From Gammaproteobacteria bacterium (GTDB lineage: Bacteria > Pseudomonadota > Gammaproteobacteria > DAOVJZ01): DNA of 64,000 bases. The stretch spans positions 11,668 to 75,667 of the forward strand of contig JAOUJV010000001.1 in NCBI GenBank assembly GCA_029882995.1, read 5' to 3'. Position numbers and translations under genes: made by a program. This document shows, one piece after another, positions 29,442-56,390 of this stretch. Position 1 is the first letter of the stretch; each line of letters begins with the position of its first letter. The notes under the pieces are model-generated. The model was given only the letters and a program-made list of their open reading frames with translations. It was not told where the DNA came from and made no database searches.

Positions 29442-29448
29442 GAGCTCC

Positions 29449-30183: not shown

Positions 30184-30253
30184 CTGGTCATGATCTCCGC
30201 GCAAAATTAGAAGCGGGGGCAGTGTTTTTGCCCCCGATATCAATAGGCTGTGA

Positions 30254-30589
30254 TTATACGCAACCTGTTGGCTTTGGAAGGCCAGCGTACTTACATGCTT
30301 GCTTCGCAGGGCCGTATGGGAACAGTTCGTACAGGTACTTGCTGTTACCTTTATCTGGACCCAGTTTCTTGCCAATTGCCTTGGTCAGAACGCGAACCGC
30401 AGGAGCAATTTGATATTCTTCATAATATTCACGCAGGAAATTAATAACTTCCATATGGTTATCGGTCAGCTCACAGTCATCCAGCTTGGCCATTGCTTCA
30501 CCAATTTCCATAGTCCAATCAGCACGGTTTTCCAGATAACCTTCTTCATCTACTGCAATACTTTTACCGCCAACTTCAATAGTAGCCAT
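30254..30589 (-). CDS. dsrC: DsrC, sulfur-carrier substrate of DsrAB/DsrK
   Basis: 111 aa ending [13 protein letters not shown] with both conserved C-terminal cysteines. Confidence 0.92.
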   Translation of the reverse strand: MATIEVGGKSIAVDEEGYLENRADWTMEIGEAMAKLDDCELTDNHMEVINFLREYYEEYQIAPAVRVLTKAIGKKLGPDKGNSKYLYELFPYGPAKQACKYAGLPKPTGCV

Positions 30590-30625
30590 GTTTAAATCTC
30601 CTCATCAACAAAACAAATTATTCAA

Positions 30626-30931
30626 TTAAAGCCAGGACTGCACTTTGTCATATTCAACAGTCAAATCGACAAAGCCGTTATAGTCAACTAACTGTATACC
30701 ATCTATTACTCGACCCTTGATGCCACGTGAGTCAAGGTCAGCTTCAAGCGCATAGATTTTTACATCTTTCATTGCGCCTTTTACCTTGTCTTCAATGACA
30801 GAGCCCTTGATTCCGCCATAAACGCCATCTTCAATAAGCAGAATAGCGCTGCCTTTATCACATGTACGCATGCAACGCTCGAGAGAGTTGCGATCAAATG
30901 GTGATTTATTCACTGTATGTAACATATTCAA
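30626..30931 (-). CDS. dsrH: DsrH
   Basis: 101 aa in the conserved dsrEFH position; DsrH/TusB-like. Confidence 0.8.
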   Translation of the reverse strand: MNMLHTVNKSPFDRNSLERCMRTCDKGSAILLIEDGVYGGIKGSVIEDKVKGAMKDVKIYALEADLDSRGIKGRVIDGIQLVDYNGFVDLTVEYDKVQSWL

Positions 30932-30937
30932 TATCCC

Positions 30938-31312
30938 CTAGAAATTAAGAAGCACATCCATTTCAGTCATCATTTTGGTGACTTCTTCATTACTCTTGAC
31001 TTCAACAGGGATGATTAAGTCATCTGCTGTGAGCCCACGTACTTCCATGGATTCCTTTTCAACATAGATTTTTTCAACATCGTACATTTCAAGGGCACGG
31101 TAAGTAGGAGAAAAATTCTTTACTCCAAGTGCTTTTGTGTCCTGTTCTTTCTTTAACTGGAACACACCATCATCCAGAAACATCATGTAAACATCTTGCT
31201 CGAATGCCGCACCGATGAGTACAACTTCAAGTGCTTCAAGTGCGTATATAGTACCGTAAGGTGCTTTACGGTTTACATACATAATCTTTTTAGTCTCGCC
31301 AGCTTCTTCCAT
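30938..31312 (-). CDS. dsrF: DsrF
   Basis: 124 aa DsrF/TusC-like protein in the dsrEFH position. Confidence 0.8.
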   Translation of the reverse strand: MEEAGETKKIMYVNRKAPYGTIYALEALEVVLIGAAFEQDVYMMFLDDGVFQLKKEQDTKALGVKNFSPTYRALEMYDVEKIYVEKESMEVRGLTADDLIIPVEVKSNEEVTKMMTEMDVLLNF

Positions 31313-31332
31313 TAGTATGTCTCCCGTATCAA

Positions 31333-31725
31333 TTAATCACCAAACACAACCATGCGATCTGCCTGAATACTTGCTTCAAGCAATTGCCCCAGTCCCGAAA
31401 TGCGAAACCCTGGTGCAATATTATCTGCATCTTTACCATTACGTTTGGATTCATCTGCATCAGCAATGCCACGACGTTGCGCGGCGGCAACACAAATTAC
31501 AAGATCGATTTCGTGCTTTTCAGCCAACGCACTCCAGCGATTGACAATATTTCGATCGTCCTGCGGTGGTGTTGTCAGGCGAGTGCCATTATTAACACCA
31601 TCATGATAGAAAAAGATGCGATAGATCTCGTGGCCCTTTTCCAGAGCTGCCGCAACAAAGTTGTATGCTGAGTCCGACGCCTGATGCGTGTACGGACCTT
31701 CATTAACCATAATGCCGAACTTCAT
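31333..31725 (-). CDS. dsrE: DsrE, sulfurtransferase subunit with active-site Cys
   Basis: 130 aa starting MKFGIMVNEGPY with the ICVAAA active-site Cys motif; DsrE/TusD family. Confidence 0.85.
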   Translation of the reverse strand: MKFGIMVNEGPYTHQASDSAYNFVAAALEKGHEIYRIFFYHDGVNNGTRLTTPPQDDRNIVNRWSALAEKHEIDLVICVAAAQRRGIADADESKRNGKDADNIAPGFRISGLGQLLEASIQADRMVVFGD

Positions 31726-31774
31726 ATACTATCCCCTAGTACGTTTAGTTTAAGAGCTGAATGCTGCACAAATC

Positions 31775-32848
31775 CTAGAAACGGATATGTGCAGATGCAT
31801 TCAGACTGTTACGAGCGCCACGCCAGTTATCGATGTGGAACTTCGTAAACGGCAGTTCAGTTAGTTCAAAGAAGCGTGGCCAGCCAATACGTTCAACCCA
31901 GTCACCGATACGCTCCCAATCCTGAGCATCCTTTTTATAGACGGCAAGGATGTTCTTGACGATTTCAGCAACCTCAGGCCAGCGAGGTGCATTGTTAGGA
32001 ATGCCTGCTGCCACAAGTTTATGGAACATTGGTTTGCTACGCGCATTTGAATGTTTACCACCAATCCAGATAGCCAGCTTGGTGAATTCAGAATCATTAA
32101 TCTGCATAGGAGGGCATGGAGGGAAACATGCACCGCAACAGATACATTTCTTCTCATCAACTTCAAGTGAAGGCTTGCCGTTAACCATGGCAGGACGAAT
32201 CGCAGCTACCGGGCAACGTGCAACAACTGATGGACGTTCACATGCATTAGCTACCAGATCATGATTAATCTTTGGTGGCTTTGTGTGTTGAACGTTAATC
32301 GCGATATCACCCTGACCACCACAGTTAATCTGGCAGCAGGAAGTAGTGATATGAACGCGGTTAGGCATTGTTTCATTAGTATATTCTTCATACAGCTCAT
32401 CCATCAGTGCCTTAACAACACCAGATGCGTCTGTACCAGGAATGTCACAGTGCAACCAGCCCTGTGTGTGAGAGATCATTGTCACTGAAGGACCAGTACC
32501 ACCAACAGGGTAACCGGCATCTTCGATGGCCTTAATCAAAGGTTCAACCTTTGCTTCATCAGTTACCATGATTTCCATGTTACTGCGGATTGTAAAGTGA
32601 ACATAACCTTCACCGAATTCATCAGCGATATCACACAGAAGGTTGATTTCGTATGGACCTAATTGACGCTGGGTACCGAAACGAACTGTCCATACCTTGT
32701 CGCCGCTTTTCGCAACGTGCATAAGTACACCAGGACGTAAACGCTCATGATATGACCATGCGCCATAGTTATTAAGGAACACCGGGTGCATGTATTGAAA
32801 TGCATCTGGTACACCACTTTCGATTGGATGACGAGGAGTTTCTGCCAT
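31775..32848 (-). CDS. dsrB: Dissimilatory sulfite reductase beta subunit (reverse, oxidative type)
   Basis: Start MAETPRHP with a GGAGG RBS. Siroheme/FeS Cys motifs and a ferredoxin insert CPVAAIRP...CICCGACF. ~357 aa. Confidence 0.92.
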   Translation of the reverse strand: MAETPRHPIESGVPDAFQYMHPVFLNNYGAWSYHERLRPGVLMHVAKSGDKVWTVRFGTQRQLGPYEINLLCDIADEFGEGYVHFTIRSNMEIMVTDEAKVEPLIKAIEDAGYPVGGTGPSVTMISHTQGWLHCDIPGTDASGVVKALMDELYEEYTNETMPNRVHITTSCCQINCGGQGDIAINVQHTKPPKINHDLVANACERPSVVARCPVAAIRPAMVNGKPSLEVDEKKCICCGACFPPCPPMQINDSEFTKLAIWIGGKHSNARSKPMFHKLVAAGIPNNAPRWPEVAEIVKNILAVYKKDAQDWERIGDWVERIGWPRFFELTELPFTKFHIDNWRGARNSLNASAHIRF

Positions 32849-32928
32849 TATTGCCTCCCAAATTATACGTTTGTAATCTTTGTTTAATGGCCTGCAGACA
32901 AGCAGGCCATTCACTCATTAGTAATTAA

Positions 32929-34245
32929 TTAGCCAGCCTTGCGAGCTTTCCACTTTTCAGCTTCAGCATCCCAATCGTCCATACGGACATAAGAACTCTG
33001 ACGTGCACTGCTAATCATGTTTGGATCCGGCTCAATACCGATACCTTCCAGGAAGTTAACCAGACCAATACGCTCAATTGTTTCACCAGTACGTTCGTGC
33101 TCAAGCGCATTTTCCGCCCAGAAATCAATGATTGTTTCAGCTAGTTCTTTCAGTGCTTCATAATCATCATCAGATTCCAGCTTCATGAATGGAACAAGAA
33201 CTGTACCCATAGTGTCACCAATCTTCAGGGTACGCTTACCACCCAGCAGAATTGTTACACCCTTGTCATCACCCGGGCTCAGTGCCTTGGTCATAACGTT
33301 GATACAATGCATGCAACGTACACAGTTACGGTTATCAACAGCCAGTGTGTCGTCATCATTCAATGACAATGCTTTAGTCGGGCAACGACTTACAACGTTA
33401 TCAACAATGTATTTACGACCCTTGTCAGCAACGTACTTCTTGACTTCTGCCTGATCAACTTTCATATCATCACGCCATGTACCAATTACAGCGAAGTCAG
33501 AACGCTGAATTGAGTTCATGCAGTCATTCGGGCAACCGGATACCTTGAACTTGAATTTGTATGGAAGAGCAGGGCGATGCATGTCATCCATAAAGTTATT
33601 AACAAGCAGACGGTGAATTTTTTGTTCGTCACAATTTGATTGTTCACAACGTGCTGCACCGATACAGGACATACCAGTACGTACGCATGGGCCGGCACCA
33701 CCAAGGTCCCAACCGTATTCGTTGATTTCATCAAAGAATGTTTGCACGTTCTGAGTAGTTGTACCGATAAACATAATGTTGCCTGTCTGTCCGTGGAATG
33801 CAATCAGACCAGAACCATGCTTATCCCATGAATCGGAAAGCTGGCGTAACATTTTTGTAGAGTAGTGATTACCAGCAGGTGGTTGCACACGAATAGTGTG
33901 GAACTCTTTAGATTCTGGGAACATAGGTTTGCCATCTGTACCCATCAATTCTGTAAAGCGAGGAATAATACCGCCGCCGTAACCAAAGACAGAAACCGTA
34001 CCACCTTTCCAGTAACCAAGACGTGTCTTGTAGGAATGCTCCAGCTGTCCAAGAAGGTCAACCATCATATTGCCAAACTTGTCTTGCATTGCCAGGCGCT
34101 TAAGACCTGTTACAAAGCTTGGCCAAGGACCTTTTTCCAGCTCATCCAGATTAGGAGTATTGTGGAATGGCTTGGATGATTTCTTCTCTGAAGGAAGATA
34201 AGTACAGTGCTTCTCAGGATTCTTTGGTTTGTCTGTTGCACTCAT
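32929..34245 (-). CDS. dsrA: Dissimilatory sulfite reductase alpha subunit (reverse, oxidative type)
   Basis: ATG at 34245 with an AGGAGG RBS. ~438 aa with siroheme-FeS binding Cys motifs. First gene of the operon. Confidence 0.92.
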   Translation of the reverse strand: MSATDKPKNPEKHCTYLPSEKKSSKPFHNTPNLDELEKGPWPSFVTGLKRLAMQDKFGNMMVDLLGQLEHSYKTRLGYWKGGTVSVFGYGGGIIPRFTELMGTDGKPMFPESKEFHTIRVQPPAGNHYSTKMLRQLSDSWDKHGSGLIAFHGQTGNIMFIGTTTQNVQTFFDEINEYGWDLGGAGPCVRTGMSCIGAARCEQSNCDEQKIHRLLVNNFMDDMHRPALPYKFKFKVSGCPNDCMNSIQRSDFAVIGTWRDDMKVDQAEVKKYVADKGRKYIVDNVVSRCPTKALSLNDDDTLAVDNRNCVRCMHCINVMTKALSPGDDKGVTILLGGKRTLKIGDTMGTVLVPFMKLESDDDYEALKELAETIIDFWAENALEHERTGETIERIGLVNFLEGIGIEPDPNMISSARQSSYVRMDDWDAEAEKWKARKAG

Positions 34246-34655
34246 TAGCAACTACCTCCTGTTTCAATTCGTTATTAACGTTATATAAACGGCGCGTACA
34301 GCACCCCATAAAAAAGCTGGGCGAATTGTAGTAAGTGTGTATGCCGCTTAGGAATTCATCTTTAGGGGTGTTTTACCTACCCCCTACCTATCCCAAACGG
34401 GATATAAGCAACCGATGTTTTGGAGTAATTGATTGATTTCAATAGTAATTACAGCAAAGCATCTTGAAGGCGCAGAATTATAGGTAAATCTTAAGGTTAT
34501 TGCACGCATTATTTCACTGGGTATTATGAGGGGGATTATATTGAGCAGGCAGTAATAATAGACGTCGTTCCAATTCCTGAGTAAAATGTTAGGGTATATT
34601 AGTTGTCATATATTTTAAGTGAGCTATATATGCCATTGTTAATAAAGAAGATATT

Positions 34656-46651: not shown

Positions 46652-46739
46652 GGAGAGCTGGCTGAGTGGTCGAAAGCGGCGGTCTTGAAAACCGTTGAGG
46701 GGTAACCCTCCGGGGGTTCGAATCCCTCGCTCTCCGCCA
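46652..46739 (+). tRNA. tRNA-Ser(UGA)
   Basis: Class II tRNA with acceptor ggagagc/gctctcc, anticodon loop cttgaaa, long variable arm, T-loop GGTTCGAATCC and CCA. Confidence 0.85.
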
Positions 46740-46743: not shown

Positions 46744-46775
46744 TAAAAAAGGGTCCTATTGGACCCTTTTTTGTT
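46744..46775 (+). terminator. Rho-independent terminator (aaagggtcc tatt ggacccttt + T-run)
   Basis: Perfect 9 bp stem followed by tttttgttttt directly after tRNA-Ser. Confidence 0.6.
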
Positions 46776-47101: not shown

Positions 47102-47899
47102 ATGAAGGTTTTAAGGAGTGTTTCACTAGCAGTATTTGCGATTGTATTGAGCAATTCGTTCATCTCACAAGCATCAGCAACACCGATCACAACCAGTTTC
47201 GAAACCACAGTTCAATCTACTTCGGGTATTCCGGGAGTTAATGTGGGGGACAATTTTTCTGCTTCTTTTACCTTTGATAACGATGAAACTGCAGCCAGCT
47301 CTGTTTTATCACCTATATGTGGTTTCGGTGGATGTTTTAAAACATATCGTTTTACAGATCCCGTTTATACAGGCAATGTATCTACACCAAGTTTAAATTA
47401 CAGCTCAGATGGTGGCATAGCAGTAGGTGTTTTTAACGACTTCACAATGCCATCAGGTCTTTTTGGTTCTAGCTATGAACTTGGCATTTTGGGCAATCCA
47501 GACATCTATGACTTCATCATGATTGGTGGCGGATGGGGAAGTATTGGGGAAAATATAGATTTATCAGGTAACACAACTAATATCTCTGAAATTGGATTTA
47601 GCTTATTATTTATTGGTAATTCAAATCTAATTTCTGATACTTCGTTGCCATTATCAATTGACGAATTATTATCTGATCCAGATTTTATTGGTTCTGCGCT
47701 TTTATTATCACTATATGAACTACAACAAGCTTCTTCTTTCTGCTCAGGTACTAATTCTTGTTTAGGTGGTGGAGGGGTTCCTGTTGAAATAGCCCATATA
47801 TACGGCGAAGAAGTCAGTGCAATACCCACACCCGCAACCCTGTTATTGATTGCGCCCGGTCTTCTGGCTCTGGTAAAATTGTCCAAGAGAAATAACTAA
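47102..47899 (+). CDS. PEP-CTERM sorting-domain secreted protein (exosortase substrate)
   Basis: Signal peptide and C-terminal IPTPATLLLIAPGLLALVKLSKRNN (P-[TE]-P motif, TM helix, basic tail). Ser/Gly/Thr-rich. AT-rich. Confidence 0.65.
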   Translation: MKVLRSVSLAVFAIVLSNSFISQASATPITTSFETTVQSTSGIPGVNVGDNFSASFTFDNDETAASSVLSPICGFGGCFKTYRFTDPVYTGNVSTPSLNYSSDGGIAVGVFNDFTMPSGLFGSSYELGILGNPDIYDFIMIGGGWGSIGENIDLSGNTTNISEIGFSLLFIGNSNLISDTSLPLSIDELLSDPDFIGSALLLSLYELQQASSFCSGTNSCLGGGGVPVEIAHIYGEEVSAIPTPATLLLIAPGLLALVKLSKRNN

Positions 47900-47912: not shown

Positions 47913-48188
47913 ATGTTTAAATGCCCTCATTGTGAAAAACCCGAAATAAAACCATTACGCAAAGCCATTCTTAGCCCAGGGTTGCTGGCTAAATGCGGCA
48001 TATGTTCTGGTGAATCAACGATTACTTACAAGGCATGGCTGACAGCCATGATACCAGGGTCAATTTTAATGTTGGCAACACTGGTGATGGATACCGGCGA
48101 GTGGGAAACAACACTGAATGTGGTTGGTTTTGCCTTAATGGTATTGCTCCCATTCCTGTTCGCACCATTAATAAAATTCAAAGACTGA
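47913..48188 (+). CDS. small zinc-ribbon/TM protein
   Basis: 91 aa with CPHCEK...CGIC and two TM helices. Followed by a terminator hairpin at ~48212-48241. Confidence 0.4.
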   Translation: MFKCPHCEKPEIKPLRKAILSPGLLAKCGICSGESTITYKAWLTAMIPGSILMLATLVMDTGEWETTLNVVGFALMVLLPFLFAPLIKFKD

Positions 48189-49661
48189 TTATTTCTGTGG
48201 TTCTATAAAAGCCCACCCCAGTTTCACGGGTGGGTTTTTTTCATTAAAGCGTCGCCATTTAAAGGTAACTGGCGTTTGTATTTCAATATTCGGGTATCGA
48301 TTAAGCCAGTCTACAGGTAGACTTTCGCCATCAATAGATACATCCCAAACCAGTACAGCGCCTTTGGTGAGAAAATCCTGTTTATCTATCCAGCCACTGC
48401 GTTTGTCTTCCATCTGAACATAAACAGAAGGTCGATCTTTCGAGTAAAAGGCAACATTACCACCAAGTGATAAACGTGCAACGACATATTCTAATGGTGC
48501 ATTAAATCGTTTATGCCATTCATTGGTAAAGAAAGTGCCGATTTCATTACCCGGGAAATGAGCGCGCTCGCGCAATTTAATAGTAAGTTGCGTAATGTAG
48601 GCGCTAACAATAAAGGCAGAAACAATCAGTAGGGTAATCAGAAAACGTTTAAAGTTTTTAATTCCAATATCCGGCCTGAAATAGATCATCAACAGTACGC
48701 CTGCAAGAAACCATGCCGGAGTGCCCCACATGGATTTCAGCCGCATTCCAAAAATAGCAGAAAGCAAAAGCATAATAACAAACGGTCCCAGGCCAATTAT
48801 CCATGGAAAAGGATCAGATTTTCCGGCACGTGGAAACGCAGGCTGTCCTGCTTTAAGGGCAATAAAGGCAATCAGGCAGAATAAAACAGCCAGTAATTGC
48901 GAGCCGGCGAACTTAATAGGGTAATACAGGTTGGCAAAGTCCGCTTTTTCTGCAGTTGATCGATCCAGTCCATAGGTAATGGTAGTGAAATCATTTTGCG
49001 TTACCCAGTAAAGGTGAGGGCTGATAATGAATATGCCTAATACGATGGCCAGATACAAACCAGGTTGTCTGAATGTTTTACGATAGGCGTGTGTGCTTAA
49101 TAAGACTGCAAACATGGAAAGAAACAAAAATGCAGTGTGGTATTTTGCCAGCACTGAAAGCCCTGCAAACAAACCACAAGCCAGCCAGTATTTTATATCA
49201 CCTCTTACCAGTGAATAACGAAATACCAGAACTGTCAGTGGCCATAATCCAAGCAATAATACATTGGGATTAAATTCAGGTGAGGTGAAGTTGTAATAAT
49301 AAACGCCTTCAAGCAATACCACGGCGATCAGTGAACGTGCCTCATTCAACCATTCATGTGCGAGCTTCCAGACCGCCCAGAAACCTGCCACGATACAAAG
49401 CTGACTTAACAGAAAATAGGACCAGAGCTGATTGCCGGATAATGTAACCGCTATTTCAGCCAGCCATGCAGAAAGTGGCGGGTGGCGTTCATAGCCAAGC
49501 TGCCATTCATGTCCCCATGTGATGGTTTCTGATGCATCAATGGGCATGTTGGGATGAAACAGAACTGGCAGCAAGGTCCAGACAATCAAATGCAGAATAA
49601 TAAAACGCCAGAATAGTTTTTGTGGATCACTATTAAGCGTTTGACAAAGCGCGTTAAACAT
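48189..49661 (-). CDS. GT-C family membrane glycosyltransferase (ArnT/PMT-like, GT39/GT83; candidate polyprenyl-phospho-arabinose-dependent arabinosyltransferase)
   Basis: 490 aa with ~11 TM helices. The N-terminal loop has the DxE-type motif region typical of ArnT/PMT enzymes. Located in a DPA-like pathway operon. Confidence 0.65.
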   Translation of the reverse strand: MFNALCQTLNSDPQKLFWRFIILHLIVWTLLPVLFHPNMPIDASETITWGHEWQLGYERHPPLSAWLAEIAVTLSGNQLWSYFLLSQLCIVAGFWAVWKLAHEWLNEARSLIAVVLLEGVYYYNFTSPEFNPNVLLLGLWPLTVLVFRYSLVRGDIKYWLACGLFAGLSVLAKYHTAFLFLSMFAVLLSTHAYRKTFRQPGLYLAIVLGIFIISPHLYWVTQNDFTTITYGLDRSTAEKADFANLYYPIKFAGSQLLAVLFCLIAFIALKAGQPAFPRAGKSDPFPWIIGLGPFVIMLLLSAIFGMRLKSMWGTPAWFLAGVLLMIYFRPDIGIKNFKRFLITLLIVSAFIVSAYITQLTIKLRERAHFPGNEIGTFFTNEWHKRFNAPLEYVVARLSLGGNVAFYSKDRPSVYVQMEDKRSGWIDKQDFLTKGAVLVWDVSIDGESLPVDWLNRYPNIEIQTPVTFKWRRFNEKNPPVKLGWAFIEPQK

Positions 49662-49666
49662 TTACT

Positions 49667-50404
49667 TTAGAGCTTCAGTTTCTTAAAGATGAATTCAGGG
49701 ATGTGCATAATAACTAACATAATAAAACGCCAGAACCACGGCAGGTAAACAACCTCTTTTTTCTTTTTAATAGCTCGGATGATGCCTTGGGCAATAGTTT
49801 CCGGTTTTGCCCATAATGGCCCTTTAGGAAATTCTTTTGTCATCGGTGTGTCAACAAATCCCGGCTTGATGGTTAAAACCTGTACATTACTGTCATGCAA
49901 ACGATTGCGTAATCCCTGCATAAAGATGGAAACAGCCCCCTTGGCAGTTCCGTAGATATAATTGCTCTGACGACCACGATCTCCGGCCACCGATGAGATA
50001 ACCGCAATCGTGCCGTTACGTTCATGTTCAAAATAATTGGCGCAGGATGTGAGCAATGAAAGAATGCTCAGACAGTTGGTATCCAGTTCCTTGTAGGTTT
50101 TATCCCATGATTGTTGGCAATCCGATTGATCGGGCAGGGTACCGTGTGCAACTAACACAATATCAAGGCCTGTCATGGCATCGACACATTCCTTAATTAA
50201 ATCCTCATGCTGTTCGCTGTCTGTCATATCCAGTACTTTTGTATGGACAGAAGCAGCACCGCGGGTCTTGAGATCAGTTGAAATGATGTCCAGTTTTTCA
50301 CTGTTGCGTGCAACCAGATATAAATCATTACCTTCAGAGGCAAATAATCGGGCTGTTGCGATAGCAATGGTGGAAGTAGCACCAATAATTAATATTTTAC
50401 TCAT
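49667..50404 (-). CDS. Short-chain dehydrogenase/reductase (DprE2-like decaprenylphospho-2-keto-ribose reductase candidate)
   Basis: 245 aa with Rossmann motif IIGATSTIAIATA and the catalytic YxxxK region. Immediately downstream of the DprE1-like gene. Confidence 0.65.
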   Translation of the reverse strand: MSKILIIGATSTIAIATARLFASEGNDLYLVARNSEKLDIISTDLKTRGAASVHTKVLDMTDSEQHEDLIKECVDAMTGLDIVLVAHGTLPDQSDCQQSWDKTYKELDTNCLSILSLLTSCANYFEHERNGTIAVISSVAGDRGRQSNYIYGTAKGAVSIFMQGLRNRLHDSNVQVLTIKPGFVDTPMTKEFPKGPLWAKPETIAQGIIRAIKKKKEVVYLPWFWRFIMLVIMHIPEFIFKKLKL

Positions 50405-51715
50405 CTATACAGTTACTCTACGCCAGAAGCTGGAAGAAAAATGGGGATCAATATATTGACTGAATTTTTCCCAGTTCGGATAAAAATGTTTGAAATTGTC
50501 GGCTGACATGCGTGCATCCTTGGCGGGGTATAGGCGTCCTCCCGCATTTTTTAAAAGTATATCGAGATTATCCAGCAGTTCGAATGTTTTTTTATACCGG
50601 TTAGGAAAGTCCAGTGCCAGTGTAATGCCGGGTTCCGGAAAGGACAGCATACCGGGCGAGCTAATATCACCAAACACTTTTAATACACTCAAAAAGGAGC
50701 CGGAACGGGCGCGACTGATCTCATTCAGGATATTACGTACAGCTTCCTTTCCATGTTCATGCGGAATAACACATTGGTACTGGAGAAATCCTGCCTTACC
50801 ATACATTCGATTCCAGTGATTGATGCCATCAAGCGGGTAAAAAAACGGTTCGTAATGCTGTGTGCCTTGCCAACGCCGCAGAAACTGTTTGTTGTAATAA
50901 AGCAGATTAAACGCCTTGAGTGTGTAGCTGTTTAATAATGAAAAAGGCAACTCAACAGGAAAACCCGGTTTTCTTCCCGGTGAACGTGGTGGATCAGAAC
51001 TCAGTTCAGTTGCATGATTGGCGCGTATGAAAAACCCGCGCCCCAATGCGTCACCTTTTGCCAGACAATCAATCCATGCCACGGTATATTCAAATAGATC
51101 ATTGGATTCTTCAGAGAGTTCAAAAAATTCGTCAAGGTTGGAAAAACGGATAGATTCCACGTTCATGTGAGGAGTATGTATTTTTTGTAACCGGAGCTCT
51201 GCCCAAAGGATAACGCCGGTTAAACCTAGCCCGCCAATTGTGGCTTCATACATCTCCTGGTTCTCGGGTGGAGAACATACCAGTCGTGTTCCATCTGAAC
51301 GCTGTAATTCAAATTGATTAACAAATCTTCCAAAAGTACCGTTGCGATGATGATTTTTGCCATGCACATCGTTGGCAATCGCGCCACCTACAGTGATAAA
51401 TCGGGTTCCGGGAGTAACAGGTAAAAACCATCCCTTGGGAACAATCAGCTCCAGAATCTCTGAAAGTAAAACACCTGCTTCACACCGTAATATGCCTGAT
51501 TCTGTATCAAAATGAATAAAGTGATCCAGTCCGCGTGCATCAAGCAGAATACCGTCATTATTTAAACATGAGTCACCATAACTGCGCCCATTACCAAATG
51601 GCAAAAGTGGTTTGTTTAAATAATTCGGCCAACTGTCTGTGAGCCAGTGCAGTTTATGTATTTCATGCTCTGCTCTGGGATAACCGCCCCATGATCGATA
51701 ACGCGAATCACTCAT
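50405..51715 (-). CDS. FAD-linked oxidase, DprE1/GlcD-like (decaprenylphosphoryl-beta-D-ribose 2'-oxidase candidate)
   Basis: Start MSDSRYRSWGGYP overlaps the UbiA stop (ATGA). Motif GNGRSYGDSCL with FAD_binding_4 and a C-terminal ALO-like domain. Confidence 0.65.
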   Translation of the reverse strand: MSDSRYRSWGGYPRAEHEIHKLHWLTDSWPNYLNKPLLPFGNGRSYGDSCLNNDGILLDARGLDHFIHFDTESGILRCEAGVLLSEILELIVPKGWFLPVTPGTRFITVGGAIANDVHGKNHHRNGTFGRFVNQFELQRSDGTRLVCSPPENQEMYEATIGGLGLTGVILWAELRLQKIHTPHMNVESIRFSNLDEFFELSEESNDLFEYTVAWIDCLAKGDALGRGFFIRANHATELSSDPPRSPGRKPGFPVELPFSLLNSYTLKAFNLLYYNKQFLRRWQGTQHYEPFFYPLDGINHWNRMYGKAGFLQYQCVIPHEHGKEAVRNILNEISRARSGSFLSVLKVFGDISSPGMLSFPEPGITLALDFPNRYKKTFELLDNLDILLKNAGGRLYPAKDARMSADNFKHFYPNWEKFSQYIDPHFSSSFWRRVTV

Positions 51716-52578
51716 GATGCCAACCAGAAAATAACAGCACCTATACAAGCTATCAAGATACTTGCGTAATCACGTAATGCAAACACCACCGGATCATCAT
51801 GCATTTCACCGCGATGTGTTTTGAGCCAGATTCGGCTTATCCAGTATAGAAAGAGAGGGCAAAGTAGCCAGACATACTCAGGATGTGTGTAGAGTATCTT
51901 GATATTGGGGCTGTCGATATAAAGCGCCAGGATCAGGACAGAAATAAATCCACTTCCAATACCCATTGTACGTAATAAGGATAGATCACCGGATTGATAT
52001 CCCCGACCGGCTAATTGACTCTTGTCAATGGACTGCATTAATAACAGTTCTGAGTAACGCTTGACCAACGCAAGACTAAAGAAAATAAAAATGGAAAAAT
52101 TCAGCAGCCAGAATGATAGCTCTATATTCACCACATAGGCACCGGCGATTATGCGTAGGGTGTATAAGCCTGCCAACAATAAAACATCAATTAATGCGAT
52201 AGATTTGAGTTTCAGTGAATAGCCCAATGTAACCGCAAAATAGAGACCAAGAACCATAAAAAACTGGATAGACAGTTGCATGGCAATAACGGTGCTTGCC
52301 AGCAACAATAAGGCCGCTATTATGATCCCGTGAATGACAGGAACACTGTTGGAAGCAAAGGGACGGTGACGTTTGGTAGGATGCTGTCTGTCCGCTTCCA
52401 GATCGGCCAGGTCATTAATCATATAAACTGCCGAGGCACAGAGTGAGAAAGAGAAAAAGGCCTCAATAAGTAAAATAACAGATTCTGTGTCAGCCAGCTT
52501 ATGTGCGGTGATCAAGGGCACAAACAATAAAAGATTCTTTACCCACTGATGAAAACGAAAAAGTTTTAAATAAGCCAT
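51712..52578 (-). CDS. UbiA-family prenyltransferase (decaprenyl-phosphate 5-phosphoribosyltransferase Rv3806c-like)
   Basis: 288 aa with eight TM helices and the UbiA motif NDLADLEADRQHPTKRHRPFAS. Confidence 0.65.
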   Translation of the reverse strand: MAYLKLFRFHQWVKNLLLFVPLITAHKLADTESVILLIEAFFSFSLCASAVYMINDLADLEADRQHPTKRHRPFASNSVPVIHGIIIAALLLLASTVIAMQLSIQFFMVLGLYFAVTLGYSLKLKSIALIDVLLLAGLYTLRIIAGAYVVNIELSFWLLNFSIFIFFSLALVKRYSELLLMQSIDKSQLAGRGYQSGDLSLLRTMGIGSGFISVLILALYIDSPNIKILYTHPEYVWLLCPLFLYWISRIWLKTHRGEMHDDPVVFALRDYASILIACIGAVIFWLAS

Positions 52579-52603
52579 AGAATGAATTATATGTTAGTTC
52601 CGT

Positions 52604-53542
52604 TTATTGTCCCGTTCTTCTTTCCAGTAGCAACATGAAAACTATACCGATAACAACAGCAAACCATAATGTGGCTATACGACATACCAGCGTTGCTGTA
52701 ATTGCGACAGGTATTGATACACCGGCAAGGATCAATAATCCTCCCATTGCCGCTTCGGCACTACCCAACCCACCGGGGATAAAGGAAATGGCGCCGGCAA
52801 TCATGCTGGCGCCATAAATACCGATGGCGACGGGTAAACTGATTTCAGCGCCCAAAAACTCAAGAATATAATAAAAGGCGACACCTTCGGCTCCCCACGC
52901 AATAATACCTGTCAATAATGAGCCAAGCAAAATCCGGCGTTTCATTAAATCCAGAGAATGCTGAGCCATGCCGAGTAAATTTCCTACCAGTGATTTTTCA
53001 GATAATCGCAAATGACGTGACAACCAAAACCTGACTTTATCCATGACAGGATCTGTTGCGAGAATAATCAGTAGGGCAAAGACAAGAAAGGCGAACAGGT
53101 AGAAGCCCCAGTTGAAATCTTCAACCCAGTAAATCAGCAGTGCCGCCAGAATGAGCACGGCAAACACATCCAGAATACGTTCGGTAATCAAGGCGGCCAG
53201 ACTTTGTTTATAACCGACGCCATATTGGTGTAAATACACGGAGCGAATTGCTTCACCTGCCTTCCCGGGTGTTGTTGTAAAAGCAAATCCCGCCAGATAA
53301 CACATCAAGTTTCTGGAAACGGGGATGTGATAACCAAGAGCACCAAGGTATATATGCCAGCGAAAAAAACGCAGTGCATAGTTAAAAATTGATAATCCAA
53401 AAACAAGGATCAACTGCAGGAATGTGAATGAATTCAGTTTTTCGGTGATTTGCTGGTGATCAGAAAGTGCTATGGATGCGGCATACATGGCCATAGCTAT
53501 AAGTGATGAAAAAATGAGCAACTGCCGCTTTTTCGTTTGCAC
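52604..53542 (-). CDS. UPF0104 / lysylphosphatidylglycerol-synthase-TM-like flippase-family membrane protein
   Basis: 312 aa polytopic membrane protein of the TIGR00374 type, commonly co-encoded with glycosyltransferases. Confidence 0.5.
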   Translation of the reverse strand: MQTKKRQLLIFSSLIAMAMYAASIALSDHQQITEKLNSFTFLQLILVFGLSIFNYALRFFRWHIYLGALGYHIPVSRNLMCYLAGFAFTTTPGKAGEAIRSVYLHQYGVGYKQSLAALITERILDVFAVLILAALLIYWVEDFNWGFYLFAFLVFALLIILATDPVMDKVRFWLSRHLRLSEKSLVGNLLGMAQHSLDLMKRRILLGSLLTGIIAWGAEGVAFYYILEFLGAEISLPVAIGIYGASMIAGAISFIPGGLGSAEAAMGGLLILAGVSIPVAITATLVCRIATLWFAVVIGIVFMLLLERRTGQ

Positions 53543-53676: not shown

Positions 53677-54432
53677 GTGAACCTAAATACAGTAATGGTA
53701 CTCATAAGACTCATGACATTGAACGTCATTTATATACTGCGTTCTATTTACAGAAAGGCTCAACTCAAACCGTTGGGCCTGTTCTTTATTCTATGCGCCA
53801 GTTCTGTGTTTGCTGATGTCTATGGCATCAGTGAAAGTCTGCTCGATTACATAAACAGAAATTACGGCGATCAGGCTAAAACCAGACTGGTTGACTGGCG
53901 TGATATTATTCAGAAACAAAAATACAAAAGCCTGTCTGAGCAGGAAAAACTAAGTCTGGTGAATGACTTTTTTAATCAGGTCAGATTTGTAGATGATATT
54001 GATCACTGGAATAAAGAAGATTACTGGGCTACACCGATAGAAATGTTGTCAACCAATGGCGGCGATTGTGAGGACTTCTCAATTGCCAAATATTTTACGT
54101 TAAAGGCCTTGAACGTACCGGTTGACCGTATGCGTCTGACTTATGTTAAATCAATTGTGTTAAAACAGGCTCATATGGTGCTTGCCTATTACCCGACTCC
54201 TGATGCCGAACCCTTGATTCTGGATAACTTAATGGATGAAATTCGTCCTGCATCGAACAGAAAAGATCTGGTACCTGTTTACAGCTTTAATGGTGATGGC
54301 TTATGGTTGTCCAGAGAACGAGGAGAAGGTAAACGGGTCGGTGAGTCAAGTCGTCTGGGTTTATGGAATGAACTTGCAAAAAGGATGAAAAAAGAACAGG
54401 ATTCCAAACGTTTACCAGAGGGGAAAAAATGA
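53677..54432 (+). CDS. lapG: Bacterial transglutaminase-like cysteine proteinase (LapG-like periplasmic protease)
   Basis: Signal peptide with Cys NGGDCEDFSIAKY, His AHMVLAYY and an Asp triad. Overlaps the downstream lapD-like gene start. Confidence 0.7.
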   Translation: MNLNTVMVLIRLMTLNVIYILRSIYRKAQLKPLGLFFILCASSVFADVYGISESLLDYINRNYGDQAKTRLVDWRDIIQKQKYKSLSEQEKLSLVNDFFNQVRFVDDIDHWNKEDYWATPIEMLSTNGGDCEDFSIAKYFTLKALNVPVDRMRLTYVKSIVLKQAHMVLAYYPTPDAEPLILDNLMDEIRPASNRKDLVPVYSFNGDGLWLSRERGEGKRVGESSRLGLWNELAKRMKKEQDSKRLPEGKK

Positions 54433-56390
54433 GTTTGTTCAAAAAATTGGGGATTGTTATCTCACTGCTCTTCCTGATGGTGTTCACGGGTACCATGTTT
54501 ATCGGTGTTAATGCGACACGGATCTATATGCAGGAACAACTGACTTCCCATGCACAGGATGCCGCCACTTCTCTGGGCTTATCCATTACCCATGCTGTCA
54601 AAAGCAATGACAAGGCAACCATGGATACCATGGTGAATGCCATTTTTGACAGTGGCTATTATCGTGACCTGACGATCAAATCCATGAAAGACGAAGTGCT
54701 AATCAAAAAGGAATCGCCTGTCAGAATAGAAAATGTCCCGACCTGGTTCGTTAATGCGGTACCATTGGAGTCACCTCTCGGAACTTCCATAGTCATGGAT
54801 CAATGGTCACAGATAGCACAAATCGAAATTCACAGTCATCCTGGTTATGCCTACATCAGATTATGGAACACTGCGCTTGAAACACTGACATGGTTCGGGA
54901 TTGGGTGGTTAACAGCCATGCTTCTGGTAATGCTGGTGCTGAAAATCACGTTATTACCTCTGCGGCGCATGGAAGAACAGGCCATTTCAATCAGTAACCG
55001 TGATTTTGTTACAGTTGAAAAAATACCCGGCACAAGAGAATTCCGCCGTGTTGTAATGGCGATGAACAAGATGTCCGATTCCATCAAGACTATTGTTGAA
55101 CAGCAAATCAAGCTGAGTGAAAGAATGCGTCAGGAGGCCAATCAGGACTCTCTGACCATGCTGGCGAATCGGCGCAGTTTTAATGCCAGAATGAAACAGC
55201 TTCTGGATTCGCCAGATCAGTTTGTTTTCGGCGCATTGTTATTACTGCAATTACCAAAGTTCAAAAAGTTCAATGAGCAAAAAGGGCATGAAAGCGGTGA
55301 TGAATTACTGCGCAATATAGCCAAACAGTTAACTATTAATACTAAATTTCTCAGCAATCCTGTTATCGCAAGACTGGATGGCGCCAGTTTTGCAATTCTT
55401 GCCAGCGATTTAACACCACAGGAATCAGAGCAACTGGCTGAACAAATCAGGCAGGATTTAATTCGCATTCATAATATCAATGGTGAGTACGCAGCAAGCA
55501 ATATCGGTGTTGTTTATTATGATCGCCGTAAAGGTGATAAACACACAGTAAGTGAATTGTTGTCAGAAGCAGATATGGCAATGCGAGCAGCACAAAAGCG
55601 GGGGGCCGACTGCTGGCACATGTATGCCAGAGAAAATCTTGGACGGGATGAAATCTTTACGGCACGCAAATGGAAAGAGATACTGGAAAAAACCATTCAT
55701 TCACACGGGTTTACATTGCATGGGCAGCCGGTTGTTTCTGCCAAAACAGGTATTGCTCAACAGCGTGAGATATTTGCGCGTATTTCAGATGGCGATTCCC
55801 ATTTTGTTCCTGCCAATGTCTTCATGCCTATGGTGGAACGTTGGGATCTTTCTGTTGATCTCGATATGTCTATTATCGAATCTGTTATCAAGCACATGAA
55901 AAACAGACCAACGGAAAGCATCTGTTATTCAATTAATATTTCACCTTCGTCAATACGCAGTCGTCGTTTTGCAGACTGGCTGGCAAAAATTATTATTGAG
56001 TCCGGTATTGCACCTGACCGGCTGCATTTTGAATCATCAGAAAATGGTGCCATCATCGATCTTGAGGCCTTGCATGCCTTTGCAGGCAAGATTCGTGCGA
56101 CAGGTGTTGCATTTTCGCTTGATCACTTCGGTACCGGTTTCCGTTCATTTGGTTATTTGCGGGATCTCAAACTCTACTCAATCAAGATCGACGGCAGTTA
56201 TATTCATGATATTGACAAAAACAAGGATAACCAGTTCTTTGTGCAATCACTGGTAGAAATTGCGCATGGGCTTGGTATTAAGGTTATGGCTGAATCAGTG
56301 GAAACACCGAATGAATGGGAAGAGTTAAAACGCATTGGTGTCGATAATATTCAGGGCTATATTAACGGCAAACCGGAGCCGCTAAAATAA
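54429..56390 (+). CDS. lapD: LapD-like inner-membrane c-di-GMP receptor (TM-periplasmic domain-TM-HAMP-degenerate GGDEF-EAL)
   Basis: 653 aa with two TM helices flanking a periplasmic domain. GGDEF signature degenerated to RLDGASF. The EAL domain has DHFGTGFRSF and KIDGSYI. Confidence 0.7.
   Translation: MSLFKKLGIVISLLFLMVFTGTMFIGVNATRIYMQEQLTSHAQDAATSLGLSITHAVKSNDKATMDTMVNAIFDSGYYRDLTIKSMKDEVLIKKESPVRIENVPTWFVNAVPLESPLGTSIVMDQWSQIAQIEIHSHPGYAYIRLWNTALETLTWFGIGWLTAMLLVMLVLKITLLPLRRMEEQAISISNRDFVTVEKIPGTREFRRVVMAMNKMSDSIKTIVEQQIKLSERMRQEANQDSLTMLANRRSFNARMKQLLDSPDQFVFGALLLLQLPKFKKFNEQKGHESGDELLRNIAKQLTINTKFLSNPVIARLDGASFAILASDLTPQESEQLAEQIRQDLIRIHNINGEYAASNIGVVYYDRRKGDKHTVSELLSEADMAMRAAQKRGADCWHMYARENLGRDEIFTARKWKEILEKTIHSHGFTLHGQPVVSAKTGIAQQREIFARISDGDSHFVPANVFMPMVERWDLSVDLDMSIIESVIKHMKNRPTESICYSINISPSSIRSRRFADWLAKIIIESGIAPDRLHFESSENGAIIDLEALHAFAGKIRATGVAFSLDHFGTGFRSFGYLRDLKLYSIKIDGSYIHDIDKNKDNQFFVQSLVEIAHGLGIKVMAESVETPNEWEELKRIGVDNIQGYINGKPEPLK

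Follow-up and report, generated by a model that had tools for sequence, protein, structure and literature searches.

Polyprenyl-phosphate-linked pentofuranose systems, with homologues of DprE1 and DprE2 where the sugar is arabinofuranose (Araf), are widespread in Gram-negative bacteria (Kelly et al. 2024, PNAS, PMC11127046). In Citrobacter youngae O1/O2, ORF12-15 bring together a PRPP-using UbiA-type polyprenyl-phosphate 5-phosphoribosyltransferase (PPPRS), an optional DprE1/E2 epimerase step, a flippase and a periplasmic GT-C glycosyltransferase (PMC11127046). Two older Gram-negative examples are known. In Pseudomonas aeruginosa Pa5196/PA7 (PsPA7_6245-6251 with TfpW/TfpX), homologues of PPPRS, DprE1 and DprE2 supply lipid-linked D-Araf for pilin, and the GT-C, TfpW, has been modelled on ArnT (bioRxiv 10.1101/2020.04.19.049825). 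The noeC(N)HOP operon of Azorhizobium caulinodans and Rhizobium sp. IRBG74 combines the UbiA protein NoeC, the DprE1-like NoeH, the DprE2-like NoeO and a dedicated transferase, NoeP, which acts on a lipo-chitooligosaccharide, together with a dispensable phosphatase, NoeN (PMC5080398). The mycobacterial DPA pathway comprises Rv3806c, Rv3807c, DprE1 (Rv3790), DprE2 (Rv3791) and Rv3789, with Emb/Aft GT-Cs.

Other lipid-linked sugar systems share some parts with the locus described here. In archaea, a stand-alone MprF-flippase-like UPF0104 protein (arCOG00899) is found beside a PMT/STT3-like GT-C and an adjacent lipid-sugar synthase of the GT2 family (AglD-like), and flipping of the lipid-linked sugar is its predicted role (Makarova et al. 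2015, PMC5898192). A GT2 polyprenyl-phosphate-sugar synthase and a GtrA-type flippase form the canonical layout around the GT-C of GtrA/GtrB/GtrX-type systems, while ArnT, ArnC and ArnEF modify lipid A with L-Ara4N.

Here we describe a five-gene operon found in the window, the 64-kb stretch of DNA that was analysed. Pathways of this type have been described in Gram-negatives before. A preliminary description of this DNA had spoken of co-option in a few Gram-negatives, which is out of date: more than 7000 UbiA homologues were found, the UbiA-DprE1-DprE2 triad was present on 65 plasmids and at 36/50 and 37/50 metagenome loci, and the general pathway is set out in PMC11127046. What is new is the combination of parts not previously seen together, namely a UbiA protein lacking its HAD domain, an MprF-like flippase candidate and a GT-C of the family usually partnered by GT2 and GtrA. 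From the family identities, intact motifs, operon structure and conservation of these genes we infer the enzymatic steps, the lipid, the role of the flippase, the sugar and the acceptor, and consider it likely that the operon modifies an envelope component, outside the cytoplasm, with a pentofuranose that is most probably D-arabinofuranose, as a member of the ‘three-component’ polyprenyl-phosphate-sugar class.

The locus differs from several of these systems. Unlike the C. youngae system, it lies outside an O-antigen locus, its PPPRS no longer carries the HAD phosphoribose-phosphatase domain, its flippase candidate is MprF-like (PF03706) rather than a small SMR/ArnEF-like transporter, and its GT-C belongs to PMT_2 (GT39/83-like) rather than GT136 and has no carbohydrate-binding module. 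TfpW, a protein of 646 aa, has a TPR domain at its C-terminus, and its gene adjoins pilA and lies apart from the sugar genes, whereas the GT-C here lacks a TPR domain and is encoded in one operon with the sugar genes, without a pilin nearby. The P. aeruginosa system further includes 6247, which is GtrA-like, and 6245, a phosphatase of the PAP2 type. No nod genes were found in the window, in contrast to the noe setting. Relative to GtrA/GtrB/GtrX-type systems, the donor module of GT2 and GtrA is replaced by UbiA, DprE1-like and DprE2-like proteins together with an MprF-like protein.

Organisation and conservation of the operon

Five co-directional minus-strand genes had been described between 48189 and 53542, and the five tightly packed ORFs were all found where described, with Pfam and NCBIfam searches confirming the family of each (Table 1). 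The flippase-like gene precedes UbiA by 25 nt, the UbiA stop overlaps the start of the FAD oxidase gene in an ATGA, as previously noted, the FAD oxidase and SDR genes are contiguous, and 5 nt separate the SDR gene from that of the GT-C, a spacing that amounts to translational coupling or comes close to it. In one relative (L085) the operon is retained in identical order and chromosomal position at ~75% nucleotide identity. In another (L087) the contig is short and reaches no further than the start of the ORF after UbiA; over that length, the flippase-like gene included, the arrangement is the same. The window also holds a dsrABEFHCMKLJOPN cluster (21962-34251), in keeping with the earlier label of a sulfur oxidizer.

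Table 1. Genes of the operon and the two convergent genes beside it. The length of the DprE1-like protein follows the ATG of public gene calls; in the longest ORF the start codon is a TTG at 51748.
Feature	Coordinates	Strand	Length and remarks
MprF-flippase-like (UPF0104 / PF03706, LPG_synthase_TM) membrane protein	52604-53542	-	312 aa; operon gene 1
UbiA-family PPPRS, Rv3806c-like (predicted)	51712-52578	-	288 aa; without HAD phosphatase domain
DprE1-like FAD-dependent oxidase, putative polyprenyl-P-ribose 2'-oxidase	50405-51715	-	436 aa
DprE2-like SDR, putative polyprenyl-P-2-keto-pentofuranose reductase	49667-50404	-	245 aa
ArnT-like GT-C(A) glycosyltransferase (Pfam PMT_2; NCBI name ‘GT39 family’)	48189-49661	-	490 aa; last gene of operon
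CxxC...CxxC protein, two predicted membrane helices	47913-48188	+	91 aa; abuts GT-C stop codon, convergent
Secreted Ser/Thr-enriched protein, degenerate PEP-CTERM/VPLPA-CTERM-like tail	47102-47899	+	265 aa

Predicted donor enzymes and the flippase candidate

The UbiA-family protein had been assigned as a prenyl-phosphate phosphoribosyltransferase on the strength of its NDxxDxxxD motif, and this assignment was borne out. Its only PDB sequence matches were to Mtb decaprenyl-phosphate phosphoribosyltransferase (DPPRS, Rv3806c; 8j8j/8j8k, E 6e-29, 38% identity over 181 columns), and it matched NCBIfam DPPRS models at E 1e-47 against about 1e-10 for ubiA/cyoE, grouping it away from menaquinone/ubiquinone prenyltransferases. 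The motif (NDLADLEAD) occupies residues 55-63; N55-D56-xx-D59-xxx-D63 and K173-R174-Y-x-E177 are invariant across 39 homologues, and the NDxxDxxxD and KRYxE residues are essential in C. youngae ORF15 and in Mtb DPPRS (PMC11127046). The protein falls in the HAD-fused PRK08238 subfamily, the architecture type of ORF15 (409 bits, cutoff 351), yet its alignment to the profile is confined to positions 194-480 of 482: the HAD phosphatase domain, present in 68 of its 70 closest UbiA relatives, is missing. No HAD homologue was found anywhere in the 64-kb window and no 5-phosphatase gene is encoded at the operon, and we suggest that the 5-phosphate would be removed by a phosphatase encoded elsewhere. 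Arabinosylation falls but is not abolished when the dedicated phosphatase is lost, as seen with noeN in Rhizobium (PMC5080398) and with 6245 in P. aeruginosa, and ORF15 with a dead PRP domain retains partial function (PMC11127046).

The next two proteins, previously described as a DprE1-like oxidase with a GNGRSYGDSCL motif and a DprE2-like SDR, have the mycobacterial DPA-pathway enzymes as their best PDB matches by a wide margin and do not group with unrelated sugar-alcohol oxidases. For the oxidase, the top PDB match was M. smegmatis/Mtb DprE1 (E 2e-71; 37% identity to the M. smegmatis enzyme over 392 columns), followed by xylitol oxidase at E 3e-10. The motif lies at residues 41-51 and K399 corresponds to the conserved catalytic Lys (Mtb K418), while Ala367 replaces the Cys targeted by benzothiazinones (Mtb C387). 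The SDR aligned end to end with Mtb DprE2 (21gq_C; E 2e-30, 30% identity; next match E 1e-19), matched PRK07102 at 339 (cutoff 267) and has the motifs G8ATSTI, S137 and Y151xxxK155. Scores against the NCBIfam DprE1 model (E 9e-112, 374 bits) and DprE2 model (188) lie below the equivalog cutoffs of 500 and 250, as would be expected of non-actinobacterial homologues, and do not certify orthology. By analogy with the mycobacterial conversion of PRPP to polyprenyl-P-Araf, C2' oxidation by the flavoenzyme and reduction by the SDR would yield polyprenyl-P-beta-D-arabinofuranose; the enzyme assignments favour the lipid-linked D-arabinofuranose donor proposed earlier. Since neither protein has a signal peptide, this donor would be made in the cytoplasm and would have to be flipped.

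The UPF0104 membrane protein that had been noted ahead of UbiA is a candidate for bringing polyprenyl-P-pentofuranose across to the periplasmic leaflet, judging from its family. It matched PF03706 (E 3e-47) and the NCBIfam ‘flippase-like domain’ TIGR00374 (99 bits, cutoff 43), with no sequence match in the PDB. Homologues lie directly upstream of HAD-UbiA-DprE1-DprE2 at two loci (L089, L090) and at 7/54 metagenome loci, one adjoins DprE1 on an Indioceanicola plasmid, and the Flip-UbiA-DprE1-DprE2 order recurs among other Proteobacteria. We know of no demonstrated case of an MprF-like protein flipping polyprenyl-phosphate sugars.

The GT-C glycosyltransferase

The last gene of the operon encodes an ArnT/PMT-like protein, as first proposed, with a GT-C(A) fold and a conserved acidic loop after TM1 (D42xxE45). 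This protein is presumed to be the periplasmic pentofuranosyltransferase, and would move Araf from the flipped donor onto a periplasmic acceptor. Its family is large, with neighbouring GT2 and GtrA genes at 46 of 80 homologue loci. Linkage to DPA genes was seen only in the window and in an alphaproteobacterial MAG (UBA6187, L005), where a GT-C 42% identical to that of the window lies inside a DprE1-DprE2-GT-C-UbiA operon of different gene order with overlapping genes. This operon, from an unrelated lineage, supports functional coupling of this type of GT-C with a DPA-like donor. None of the 23 cassettes carrying the closest UbiA subfamily (0/23) includes this GT-C and the family's usual partners are GT2 and GtrA, and its specificity for a pentofuranose donor is therefore read from operon context only.

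Candidate acceptors and products

A glycolipid or glycan (lipid A-core, O-antigen or exopolysaccharide) is more likely to be the acceptor than the protein encoded nearby. One possible outcome is that an O-antigen, capsule or exopolysaccharide, once polymerised, is decorated with side branches of Araf (or Ribf), as in C. youngae, Stenotrophomonas and Rathayibacter; this role is established experimentally for Gram-negative systems of PPPRS, flippase and GT-C, with DprE1/E2 where the glycan contains Araf (PMC11127046). At L090, moreover, a Flip-HAD.UbiA-DprE1-DprE2 cassette sits within a polysaccharide locus (rml genes, GT4s, Wzx, pyruvyl transferase). The operon described here, however, has lapGD, yccA, tRNA-Ser and ggt as neighbours and lies neither within nor close to a polysaccharide gene cluster. 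Its GT-C is also unlike that of a Kelly-like cassette: compared by hhalign with the DUF6044 protein at L178, it gave a probability of 0.2%.

Transfer of the pentofuranose to lipid A-core by an ArnT/RgtD-like enzyme is a comparably tentative reading. On this reading the whole family would act on lipid A-core, with donors that depend on the partner genes. ArnT was the best full-length structural match of the GT-C, but similarity to the folds of Pmt4 and ALG12 was just as high, identity to ArnT was just 15%, none of the NCBIfam models for ArnT (the equivalog included) or for other lipid A transferases was matched, and no lpx or waa genes adjoin the operon. To our knowledge, no lipid A bearing arabinofuranose has been described, which also counts against this reading.

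It is unlikely that the GT-C O-glycosylates the neighbouring 265-aa protein with D-Araf, as TfpW does pilin, although this had been suggested in the preliminary description. The description of a Ser/Thr-rich secreted protein stands: the ORF exists, its N-terminus is signal-peptide-like, and Ser and Thr make up 21.5% of residues compared with 10-17% in neighbours. The PEP-CTERM assignment holds less well. The tail (IPTPATLLLIAPGLLALVKLSKRNN), conserved across 3 variants, has PTP rather than PEP and matched eight PEP-CTERM models, all below threshold; no exosortase was found in the 64-kb window, and NCBI annotates both this protein and the 91-aa one as ‘hypothetical protein’. Distant relatives do carry VPLPA/PEP-CTERM tails, one of them (P0258) passing TIGR02595, but no GT-C or DPA genes lie near these relatives. 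Nor is the gene immediately downstream of the operon, as had been stated, since the 91-aa gene intervenes; the two genes run towards the operon, and that of the 265-aa protein is not co-transcribed with it. Convergent transcription and the lack of linkage between its relatives and GT-C/DPA genes make the 265-aa protein a weak acceptor candidate; furthermore, no homologue was found at any of the 80 GT-C loci, L005 included, and the GT-C has no added protein-binding domain (Pfam) comparable to the TPR domain of TfpW. Whether the 91-aa protein is part of the system is uncertain: it is 80% identical to a protein at the same position in L085 and weakly matches the TIGR04104 zinc-finger (E 0.01), while its gene is absent from L005.

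Very unlikely, finally, is a product other than D-Araf, whether through direct use of polyprenyl-P-ribofuranose, retention of the 5-phosphate or a fortuitously placed GT-C acting on an unrelated donor: the missing HAD/PRP domain, the sub-cutoff DprE1/E2 scores, the GT2-made donors used by GT-C relatives and the promiscuity of a GT136 enzyme towards Ribf and Xylf donors (PMC11127046) would fit it, but alignment of the DprE1- and DprE2-like proteins to their mycobacterial counterparts runs over the full length with catalytic residues kept, P. aeruginosa homologues of similar, 33% identity make D-Araf (bioRxiv 10.1101/2020.04.19.049825), and phosphatase loss has only the partial effects described above. 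Fortuitous linkage of the GT-C is itself improbable, as its gene lies just 5 nt from that of the SDR here and the independent L005 operon has an overlap of 4 nt.

Operon layout and predicted donor enzymes

All five minus-strand ORFs lie exactly where the preliminary description had placed them, and they form a tightly packed operon. The UbiA stop and the oxidase start share an ATGA, the overlap claimed beforehand and read here directly in the junction sequence, while no spacer separates the oxidase stop from the SDR start, the SDR and GT-C genes are 5 nt apart, and the flippase-like gene and UbiA 25 nt apart. The oxidase start used is the ATG of the public gene calls; a longer, TTG-initiated ORF extends to 51748. 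In a promoter and terminator scan of 46.4-54 kb, counts were at or below shuffled expectation. Proteins identical to those of the window were found on several estuarine and sediment metagenome contigs. A more distant relative (L085) keeps the five-gene order together with the flanking lapGD and yccA at ~75% nucleotide identity, and in a further one (L087, a 4.3-kb contig) only the lapD/lapG-flippase-like-UbiA part is visible.

Positions of the operon genes and other features of the window
Feature	Coordinates	Strand	Pfam
Low-GC stretch	1-4000		
961-aa ORF	424-3309		
Sirohaem synthase	9984-11363		
Psr/Phs-like molybdopterin oxidoreductase set	11621-15837		
NapC/NirT-type cytochrome	15873-16541		
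Cytochrome cd1 nitrite reductase	17047-18660		
dsrABEFHCMKLJOPN cluster	21962-34251	-	
Two ORFs of 90-102 aa	46542-46850	-	
tRNA-Ser(TGA)	46652-46739		
Hairpin and T-run	46745-46772		
265-aa protein	47102-47899		
91-aa protein	47913-48188	+	
GT-C, 490 aa	48189-49661	-	PMT_2
SDR (DprE2-like), 245 aa	49667-50404	-	adh_short
FAD oxidase (DprE1-like), 436 aa	50405-51715	-	FAD_binding_4
UbiA, 288 aa	51712-52578	-	UbiA (PF01040, E 6e-21)
UPF0104 flippase-like protein, 312 aa	52604-53542	-	LPG_synthase_TM (PF03706)
lapG-like and lapD-like genes	53677-56390	+	

The UbiA protein is predicted to be a PPPRS of the Rv3806c subfamily, nearer to Rv3806c than to the quinone, haem and chlorophyll prenyltransferases. 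Its sole PDB matches were the decaprenyl-phosphate phosphoribosyltransferase (DPPRS) of M. tuberculosis (8j8j/8j8k, E 6e-29, 38% identity), and among NCBIfam models those for DPPRS reached 1e-47, those for ubiA, cyoE and chlG no better than 1e-10. The protein falls below the DPPRS equivalog cutoffs (162 vs 207) and above that of PRK08238 (409 vs 351), of which it spans only profile positions 194-480, without the HAD domain. The catalytic NDxxDxxxD motif of loop II (N55, D56, D59 and D63, within NDLADLEAD at 55-63, as previously noted) and the R/KxxE motif of loop IV (K173, R174 and E177) are invariant across 39 homologues; the equivalent residues of ORF15, the PPPRS of Citrobacter youngae O1/O2, have been mutated (PMC11127046).

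The FAD oxidase, which carries the reported GNGRSYGDSCL at residues 41-51, matches DprE1 in the PDB at E 2e-71 over residues 38-433, essentially its whole length, with 37% identity, whereas the next PDB family, xylitol oxidase, is reached at 3e-10 through the FAD domain alone. On the NCBIfam equivalog NF053785, a model built on actinobacterial sequences, it scores 374.5 bits against a cutoff of 500. Its K399 aligns with M. smegmatis K425, the catalytic lysine (K418 in M. tuberculosis), and Ala367 stands where M. smegmatis has Cys394 (M. tuberculosis C387), the benzothiazinone-reactive cysteine. That cysteine sets drug sensitivity and is not a family-defining residue; by likeness to the natural Cys-to-Ala/Ser DprE1 variants known in mycobacteria, one would expect BTZ-type inhibitors not to act on the window enzyme. 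The SDR matches DprE2 (21gq_C, 2e-30, 30% identity; query 4-244 on chain 12-253, the C-terminal extension included) ahead of its next PDB match at 1e-19, and has the catalytic residues S137 and Y151xxxK155. It scores 187.6 bits on NCBIfam equivalog NF053786 (cutoff 250) and passes PRK07102, 'SDR family oxidoreductase' (339 vs 267).

For these three proteins the DPPRS, DprE1 and DprE2 models rank first or second in NCBIfam. The three identities are comparable with those of the P. aeruginosa homologues (DprE1 33%), whose role in D-Araf synthesis has genetic support (bioRxiv 10.1101/2020.04.19.049825). Pfam, the NCBIfam and PDB margins and the intact catalytic residues all agree with the enzyme names first proposed; with these assignments, UbiA does not group with the menaquinone/ubiquinone prenyltransferases, nor the oxidase and SDR with unrelated sugar-alcohol oxidases, the two outcomes that the preliminary description had set against its own reading.

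The GT-C transferase and the joining of two modules

Since neither the single GT-C sequence nor a 42-sequence profile gave a meaningful match in the PDB, a structure prediction was needed; in NCBIfam no family was hit at E ≤ 0.01, and PMT_2 is the only Pfam domain across the 490 residues. The AlphaFold2 model generated from the 42-sequence alignment (pLDDT 94, pTM 0.92) has a GT-C(A) fold, an acidic residue in periplasmic loop 1 and a compact, small alpha/beta C-terminal periplasmic domain, as in the ArnT fold. The model makes the protein an ArnT/PMT-like GT-C(A) enzyme and no Emb/Aft homologue, as it has neither sequence nor close fold likeness to EmbA/B/C or AftA-D. D42 and E45, invariant in the alignment and directly after the first transmembrane helix, occupy the position of the GT-C catalytic acids. 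Their D-x-x-E spacing is that of D31 and E34, both essential in the GT136 enzyme (PMC11127046), a likeness that would be one of analogy and does not imply homology.

The window GT-C lies outside the ArnT equivalog models and has no arn genes (arnBCADTEF) nearby. TfpW, the P. aeruginosa pilin D-Araf GT-C, has a C-terminal TPR and a pilA-adjacent gene, whereas the window protein lacks a TPR and its neighbours are not pilins. Plasmid searches with the GT-C and the flippase-like protein, meant to reach the rhizobial NoeP transferase, recovered no noe operon. Aligned by hhalign as a 42-sequence profile with the DUF6044 protein of a phage-like contig (L178), the GT-C gave a probability of 0.2%, which places it outside GT136 insofar as DUF6044 can be equated with that family.

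The contig in question (MT837543.1, 'Bacteriophage sp.', human faeces) carries at 1228-5749 (-) a compact cassette of the Citrobacter type. Its genes encode UbiA, a stand-alone HAD phosphatase, a small transporter like SMR/EamA, an NAD-dependent epimerase and a DUF6044 membrane protein of 565 aa; judging from this content, Pfam DUF6044 may be the GT136-type transferase. The cassette looks like the phage-borne pentofuranose (Xylf-type?) seroconversion system to which PMC11127046 refers.

The GT-C family has at least 543 relatives in species-representative genomes of Alpha-, Beta- and Gammaproteobacteria, Desulfobacterales, Planctomycetota and others. Among the best 80 of these loci, taken with flanks of up to 10 kb, a GT2 and/or GtrA-family gene adjoins the GT-C in 46, while DprE1, DprE2 and UbiA lie near it in just one, in the alphaproteobacterial MAG UBA6187 (L005; GT-C identity 42%). 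GT2 neighbours were tagged by clustering (45 loci), single-query tblastn having undercounted them (13), and the neighbour-joining tree was therefore taken for rough topology only. A relative as close as that of the alphaproteobacterial MAG (P0008, 43% identity) lies in an epimerase-GT2-GtrA-GT-C cassette, and in Rickettsiales-like MAGs the gene often stands alone amid housekeeping genes. The idea of a family of dedicated DPA-linked arabinosyltransferases was rejected on these two counts and on the P0008 cassette. In Pontibacterium spp. (L018, L026, L028 and L035) the GT-C homologue lies beside the EF-P lysylation genes efp, epmA and epmB, which is probably a lineage-specific synteny without functional meaning.

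We also surveyed 80 metagenome loci of the closest members of the UbiA subfamily, which has more than 7000 proteobacterial matches. An HAD domain is fused N-terminally to UbiA in 68 of the 70 closest homologues, and UbiA is followed by a DprE1 homologue in 36 of 50 loci and by a DprE2 homologue in 37 of 50. An MprF-like gene is present in 15 of the 80, directly upstream in 7; the order flippase-(HAD)UbiA-DprE1-DprE2 recurs on two unrelated contigs, L089 and L090, in the latter within a polysaccharide locus. Among the closest UbiA-DprE1-DprE2 cassettes with 5 kb or more of sequence to either side, 23 loci in all, none has a GT-C of the window type. In Rhizobium tumorigenes pRt1078 (L092) and Burkholderia stagnalis plas2 (L093), HAD-UbiA and DprE1- and DprE2-like genes are joined by a second SDR/epimerase, an NAD(P)/FAD-dependent oxidoreductase and GtrA. 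Between 12 and 20 of the 80 metagenome loci also have these additional genes, and such cassettes may make a non-Araf pentofuranose or a further-modified sugar.

Taken together, the two surveys show that the window operon, which sits outside any glycan locus, joins two otherwise separate modules: a donor module of a common cassette type, here minus the phosphatase domain, and an ArnT-like transferase module whose usual partner is a GT2/GtrA donor module. In the alphaproteobacterial MAG the same junction has another order, DprE1-DprE2-GT-C-UbiA; its genes overlap, its UbiA is short, mycobacterial-like and 35% identical to that of the window, and a flippase gene is absent. The different order and the overlaps suggest a functional coupling of GT-C to DPA synthesis, probably with more than one origin; in the rough tree the two GT-C lineages fall in one broad clade and are not sisters. 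On that contig (DITJ01000011.1, 7088-16100) a transposase fragment and genes for two phage-type integrases come after the operon, which suggests that the cassette lies on or beside a mobile element.

Proposed pathway and relation to known systems

By homology and context, UbiA would join PRPP to undecaprenyl phosphate, giving Und-P-ribose-5-P, from which a phosphatase unlinked to the locus would take off the 5-phosphate. The DprE1-like enzyme would then oxidise Und-P-ribose to a 2-keto intermediate and the DprE2-like reductase convert this to Und-P-beta-D-Araf, both presumably in the cytoplasm since neither has a signal peptide. Finally, the MprF-like protein would flip the lipid-linked sugar and the GT-C move Araf onto a periplasmic acceptor. 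No HAD phosphatase homologue better than E 0.5 was found across the 64-kb window. This need not be fatal to the scheme, since in Rhizobium the loss of noeN, a dedicated phosphatase, only reduces arabinosylation (PMC5080398), as does loss of 6245 in P. aeruginosa, and PRP-dead ORF15 keeps partial function (PMC11127046).

The 312-aa PF03706 protein is the sole flippase candidate, no GtrA or SMR gene being present in 46.4-54 kb; it had no match among PDB sequences. Its family includes MprF, in which a lipid-flipping domain is known. The assignment draws on this domain, on the recurrent position of such genes in cassettes and on the earlier prediction that archaeal UPF0104 proteins beside PMT/STT3-like GT-Cs are flippases (PMC5898192).

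Older cases of this pathway are the rhizobial noeCHOP operon for Nod-factor arabinosylation and the TfpW system. Systems of PPPRS, flippase and GT-C for Ribf, Xylf or Araf addition were defined by Kelly et al. 2024, according to whom such systems occur widely in both Gram-negatives and Gram-positives, and homologues of DprE1/E2 go with Araf-containing glycans (PMC11127046). The window operon unites all three components with DprE1/E2, and departs from the systems of that study in several respects. Where those have a PPPRS with an HAD domain (ORF15/PRK08238 architecture) and a small SMR/ArnEF-like ('MATE' in that paper) or GtrA-like flippase, the window has an HAD-less PPPRS, an MprF-like flippase candidate, a PMT_2/ArnT-like GT-C and a setting outside a glycan locus. 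Both the pathway logic and its Gram-negative spread are already published, and current understanding is not overturned; the module swap and the flippase type are mildly novel. If confirmed, they would represent a natural donor-module swap before a conserved ArnT-like transferase, a flippase family to add, as the third, to the GtrA/SMR-type transporters and TfpW's proposed self-flipping, and a second or third GT-C family using polyprenyl-P-pentofuranose. An uncultured sulfur oxidiser, marine or estuarine, would then also bear on its surface D-Araf, a sugar otherwise characteristic of Corynebacterineae. Such operons could help to predict glycan chemistry from genomes and, as a compact five-gene Araf-adding cassette, be of use in glycoengineering.

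Candidate acceptors and the surrounding genes

The likeness of the modelled fold cannot separate a lipid acceptor, as for ArnT, from a protein acceptor, as for Pmt4. We consider it possible, though only tentatively, that the GT-C modifies lipid A-core; that it adds side branches to a polysaccharide is a similarly tentative proposal. A fuller and rather unlikely version of the former holds that the family usually decorates a conserved glycolipid (lipid A-core) from a GT2-made polyprenyl-P-hexose, and has been rewired to mycobacterial-type polyprenyl-P-D-Araf here and, independently, in the alphaproteobacterial MAG. Were this rewiring true, a D-arabinofuranosylated lipid A or LPS core would be produced, of which we know of no earlier description, and the family of the stand-alone MprF-like protein would gain, in that protein, its first flippase for polyprenyl-P-pentofuranose.

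The glycosylation target put forward in the preliminary description, the 265-aa PEP-CTERM-like protein, is a secreted product rich in Ser/Thr (21.5%), yet proves to be weakly linked to the operon and ranks as the least likely of the three acceptor candidates. Its gene is convergent with the operon, with the 91-aa gene in between; relatives of the protein lie away from GT-C and DPA genes, one of them by a typical EPS/sigma-54 locus; a homologue is absent from the alphaproteobacterial MAG locus and from the 80 best GT-C loci; and the 64-kb window contains no exosortase.

Assignment of this protein, named hypothetical by NCBI, to the PEP-CTERM family nevertheless seems reasonable. Its tail, PTPATLLLIAPGLLALVKLSKR, has a PEP-CTERM-like architecture, with sub-threshold scores (E 0.004-0.2) on 8 PEP-CTERM family models and no PEP-CTERM match in Pfam even at E 10; the tail IPTPATLLLIAPGLLALVKLSKRNN is kept among its few known variants. 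A full HMMER profile search returned nine distant relatives, most of which end in VPVPAAVWLFGSGL...RRK, that is, in VPLPA/PEP-CTERM tails, and one of which (P0258) passes TIGR02595 (17.4 vs 16); it is these relatives that speak for the family assignment.

The 265-aa protein is hypervariable, with close homologues in only 4 clusters among 5.8 billion proteins. On contig L004 (4669-5406) its identity is 55%, whereas the adjacent 91-aa protein, GT-C, DprE2 and DprE1 are 100% identical, and in L085 (14703-15469) it is 34-66%, against ~80% for the neighbours. This difference points to a sharp boundary of recombination or diversifying selection, typical of exposed surface antigens. A zinc-ribbon-like CxxC...CxxC motif lies at the N-terminus of the 91-aa protein, which also has two hydrophobic helices; the stop of its gene abuts that of the convergent GT-C gene with zero spacing, and it is 80% conserved in L085.

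Beyond the other end of the operon, across a 134-nt intergenic region, lie divergent genes for a LapG-like periplasmic cysteine protease (237 bits vs cutoff 320) and a LapD-like c-di-GMP receptor, an arrangement that L085 and L087 share. The window encodes no LapA-type adhesin. Co-regulation of surface adhesion and glycan modification is possible.

The dsr cluster is complete and of the oxidative type, with DsrEFH and a DsrL-like protein among its products. Its genes score above the cutoffs of the models for dsrA, dsrB, dsrK and dsrEFH/C, and the cluster bears out the earlier label of sulfur oxidiser. Together with the nearby sirohaem synthase, Psr/Phs-like, NapC/NirT-type and cd1 genes, it suggests that sulfur oxidation may be coupled to denitrification.

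The two short ORFs that overlap tRNA-Ser(TGA) are almost certainly spurious, and a strong hairpin with a T-run follows the tRNA gene. At the start of the window, GC drops to 0.33-0.34, against ~0.43 elsewhere. The 961-aa ORF within this low-GC stretch has no Pfam match at E ≤ 1e-5, and the stretch may be foreign or fast-evolving DNA.
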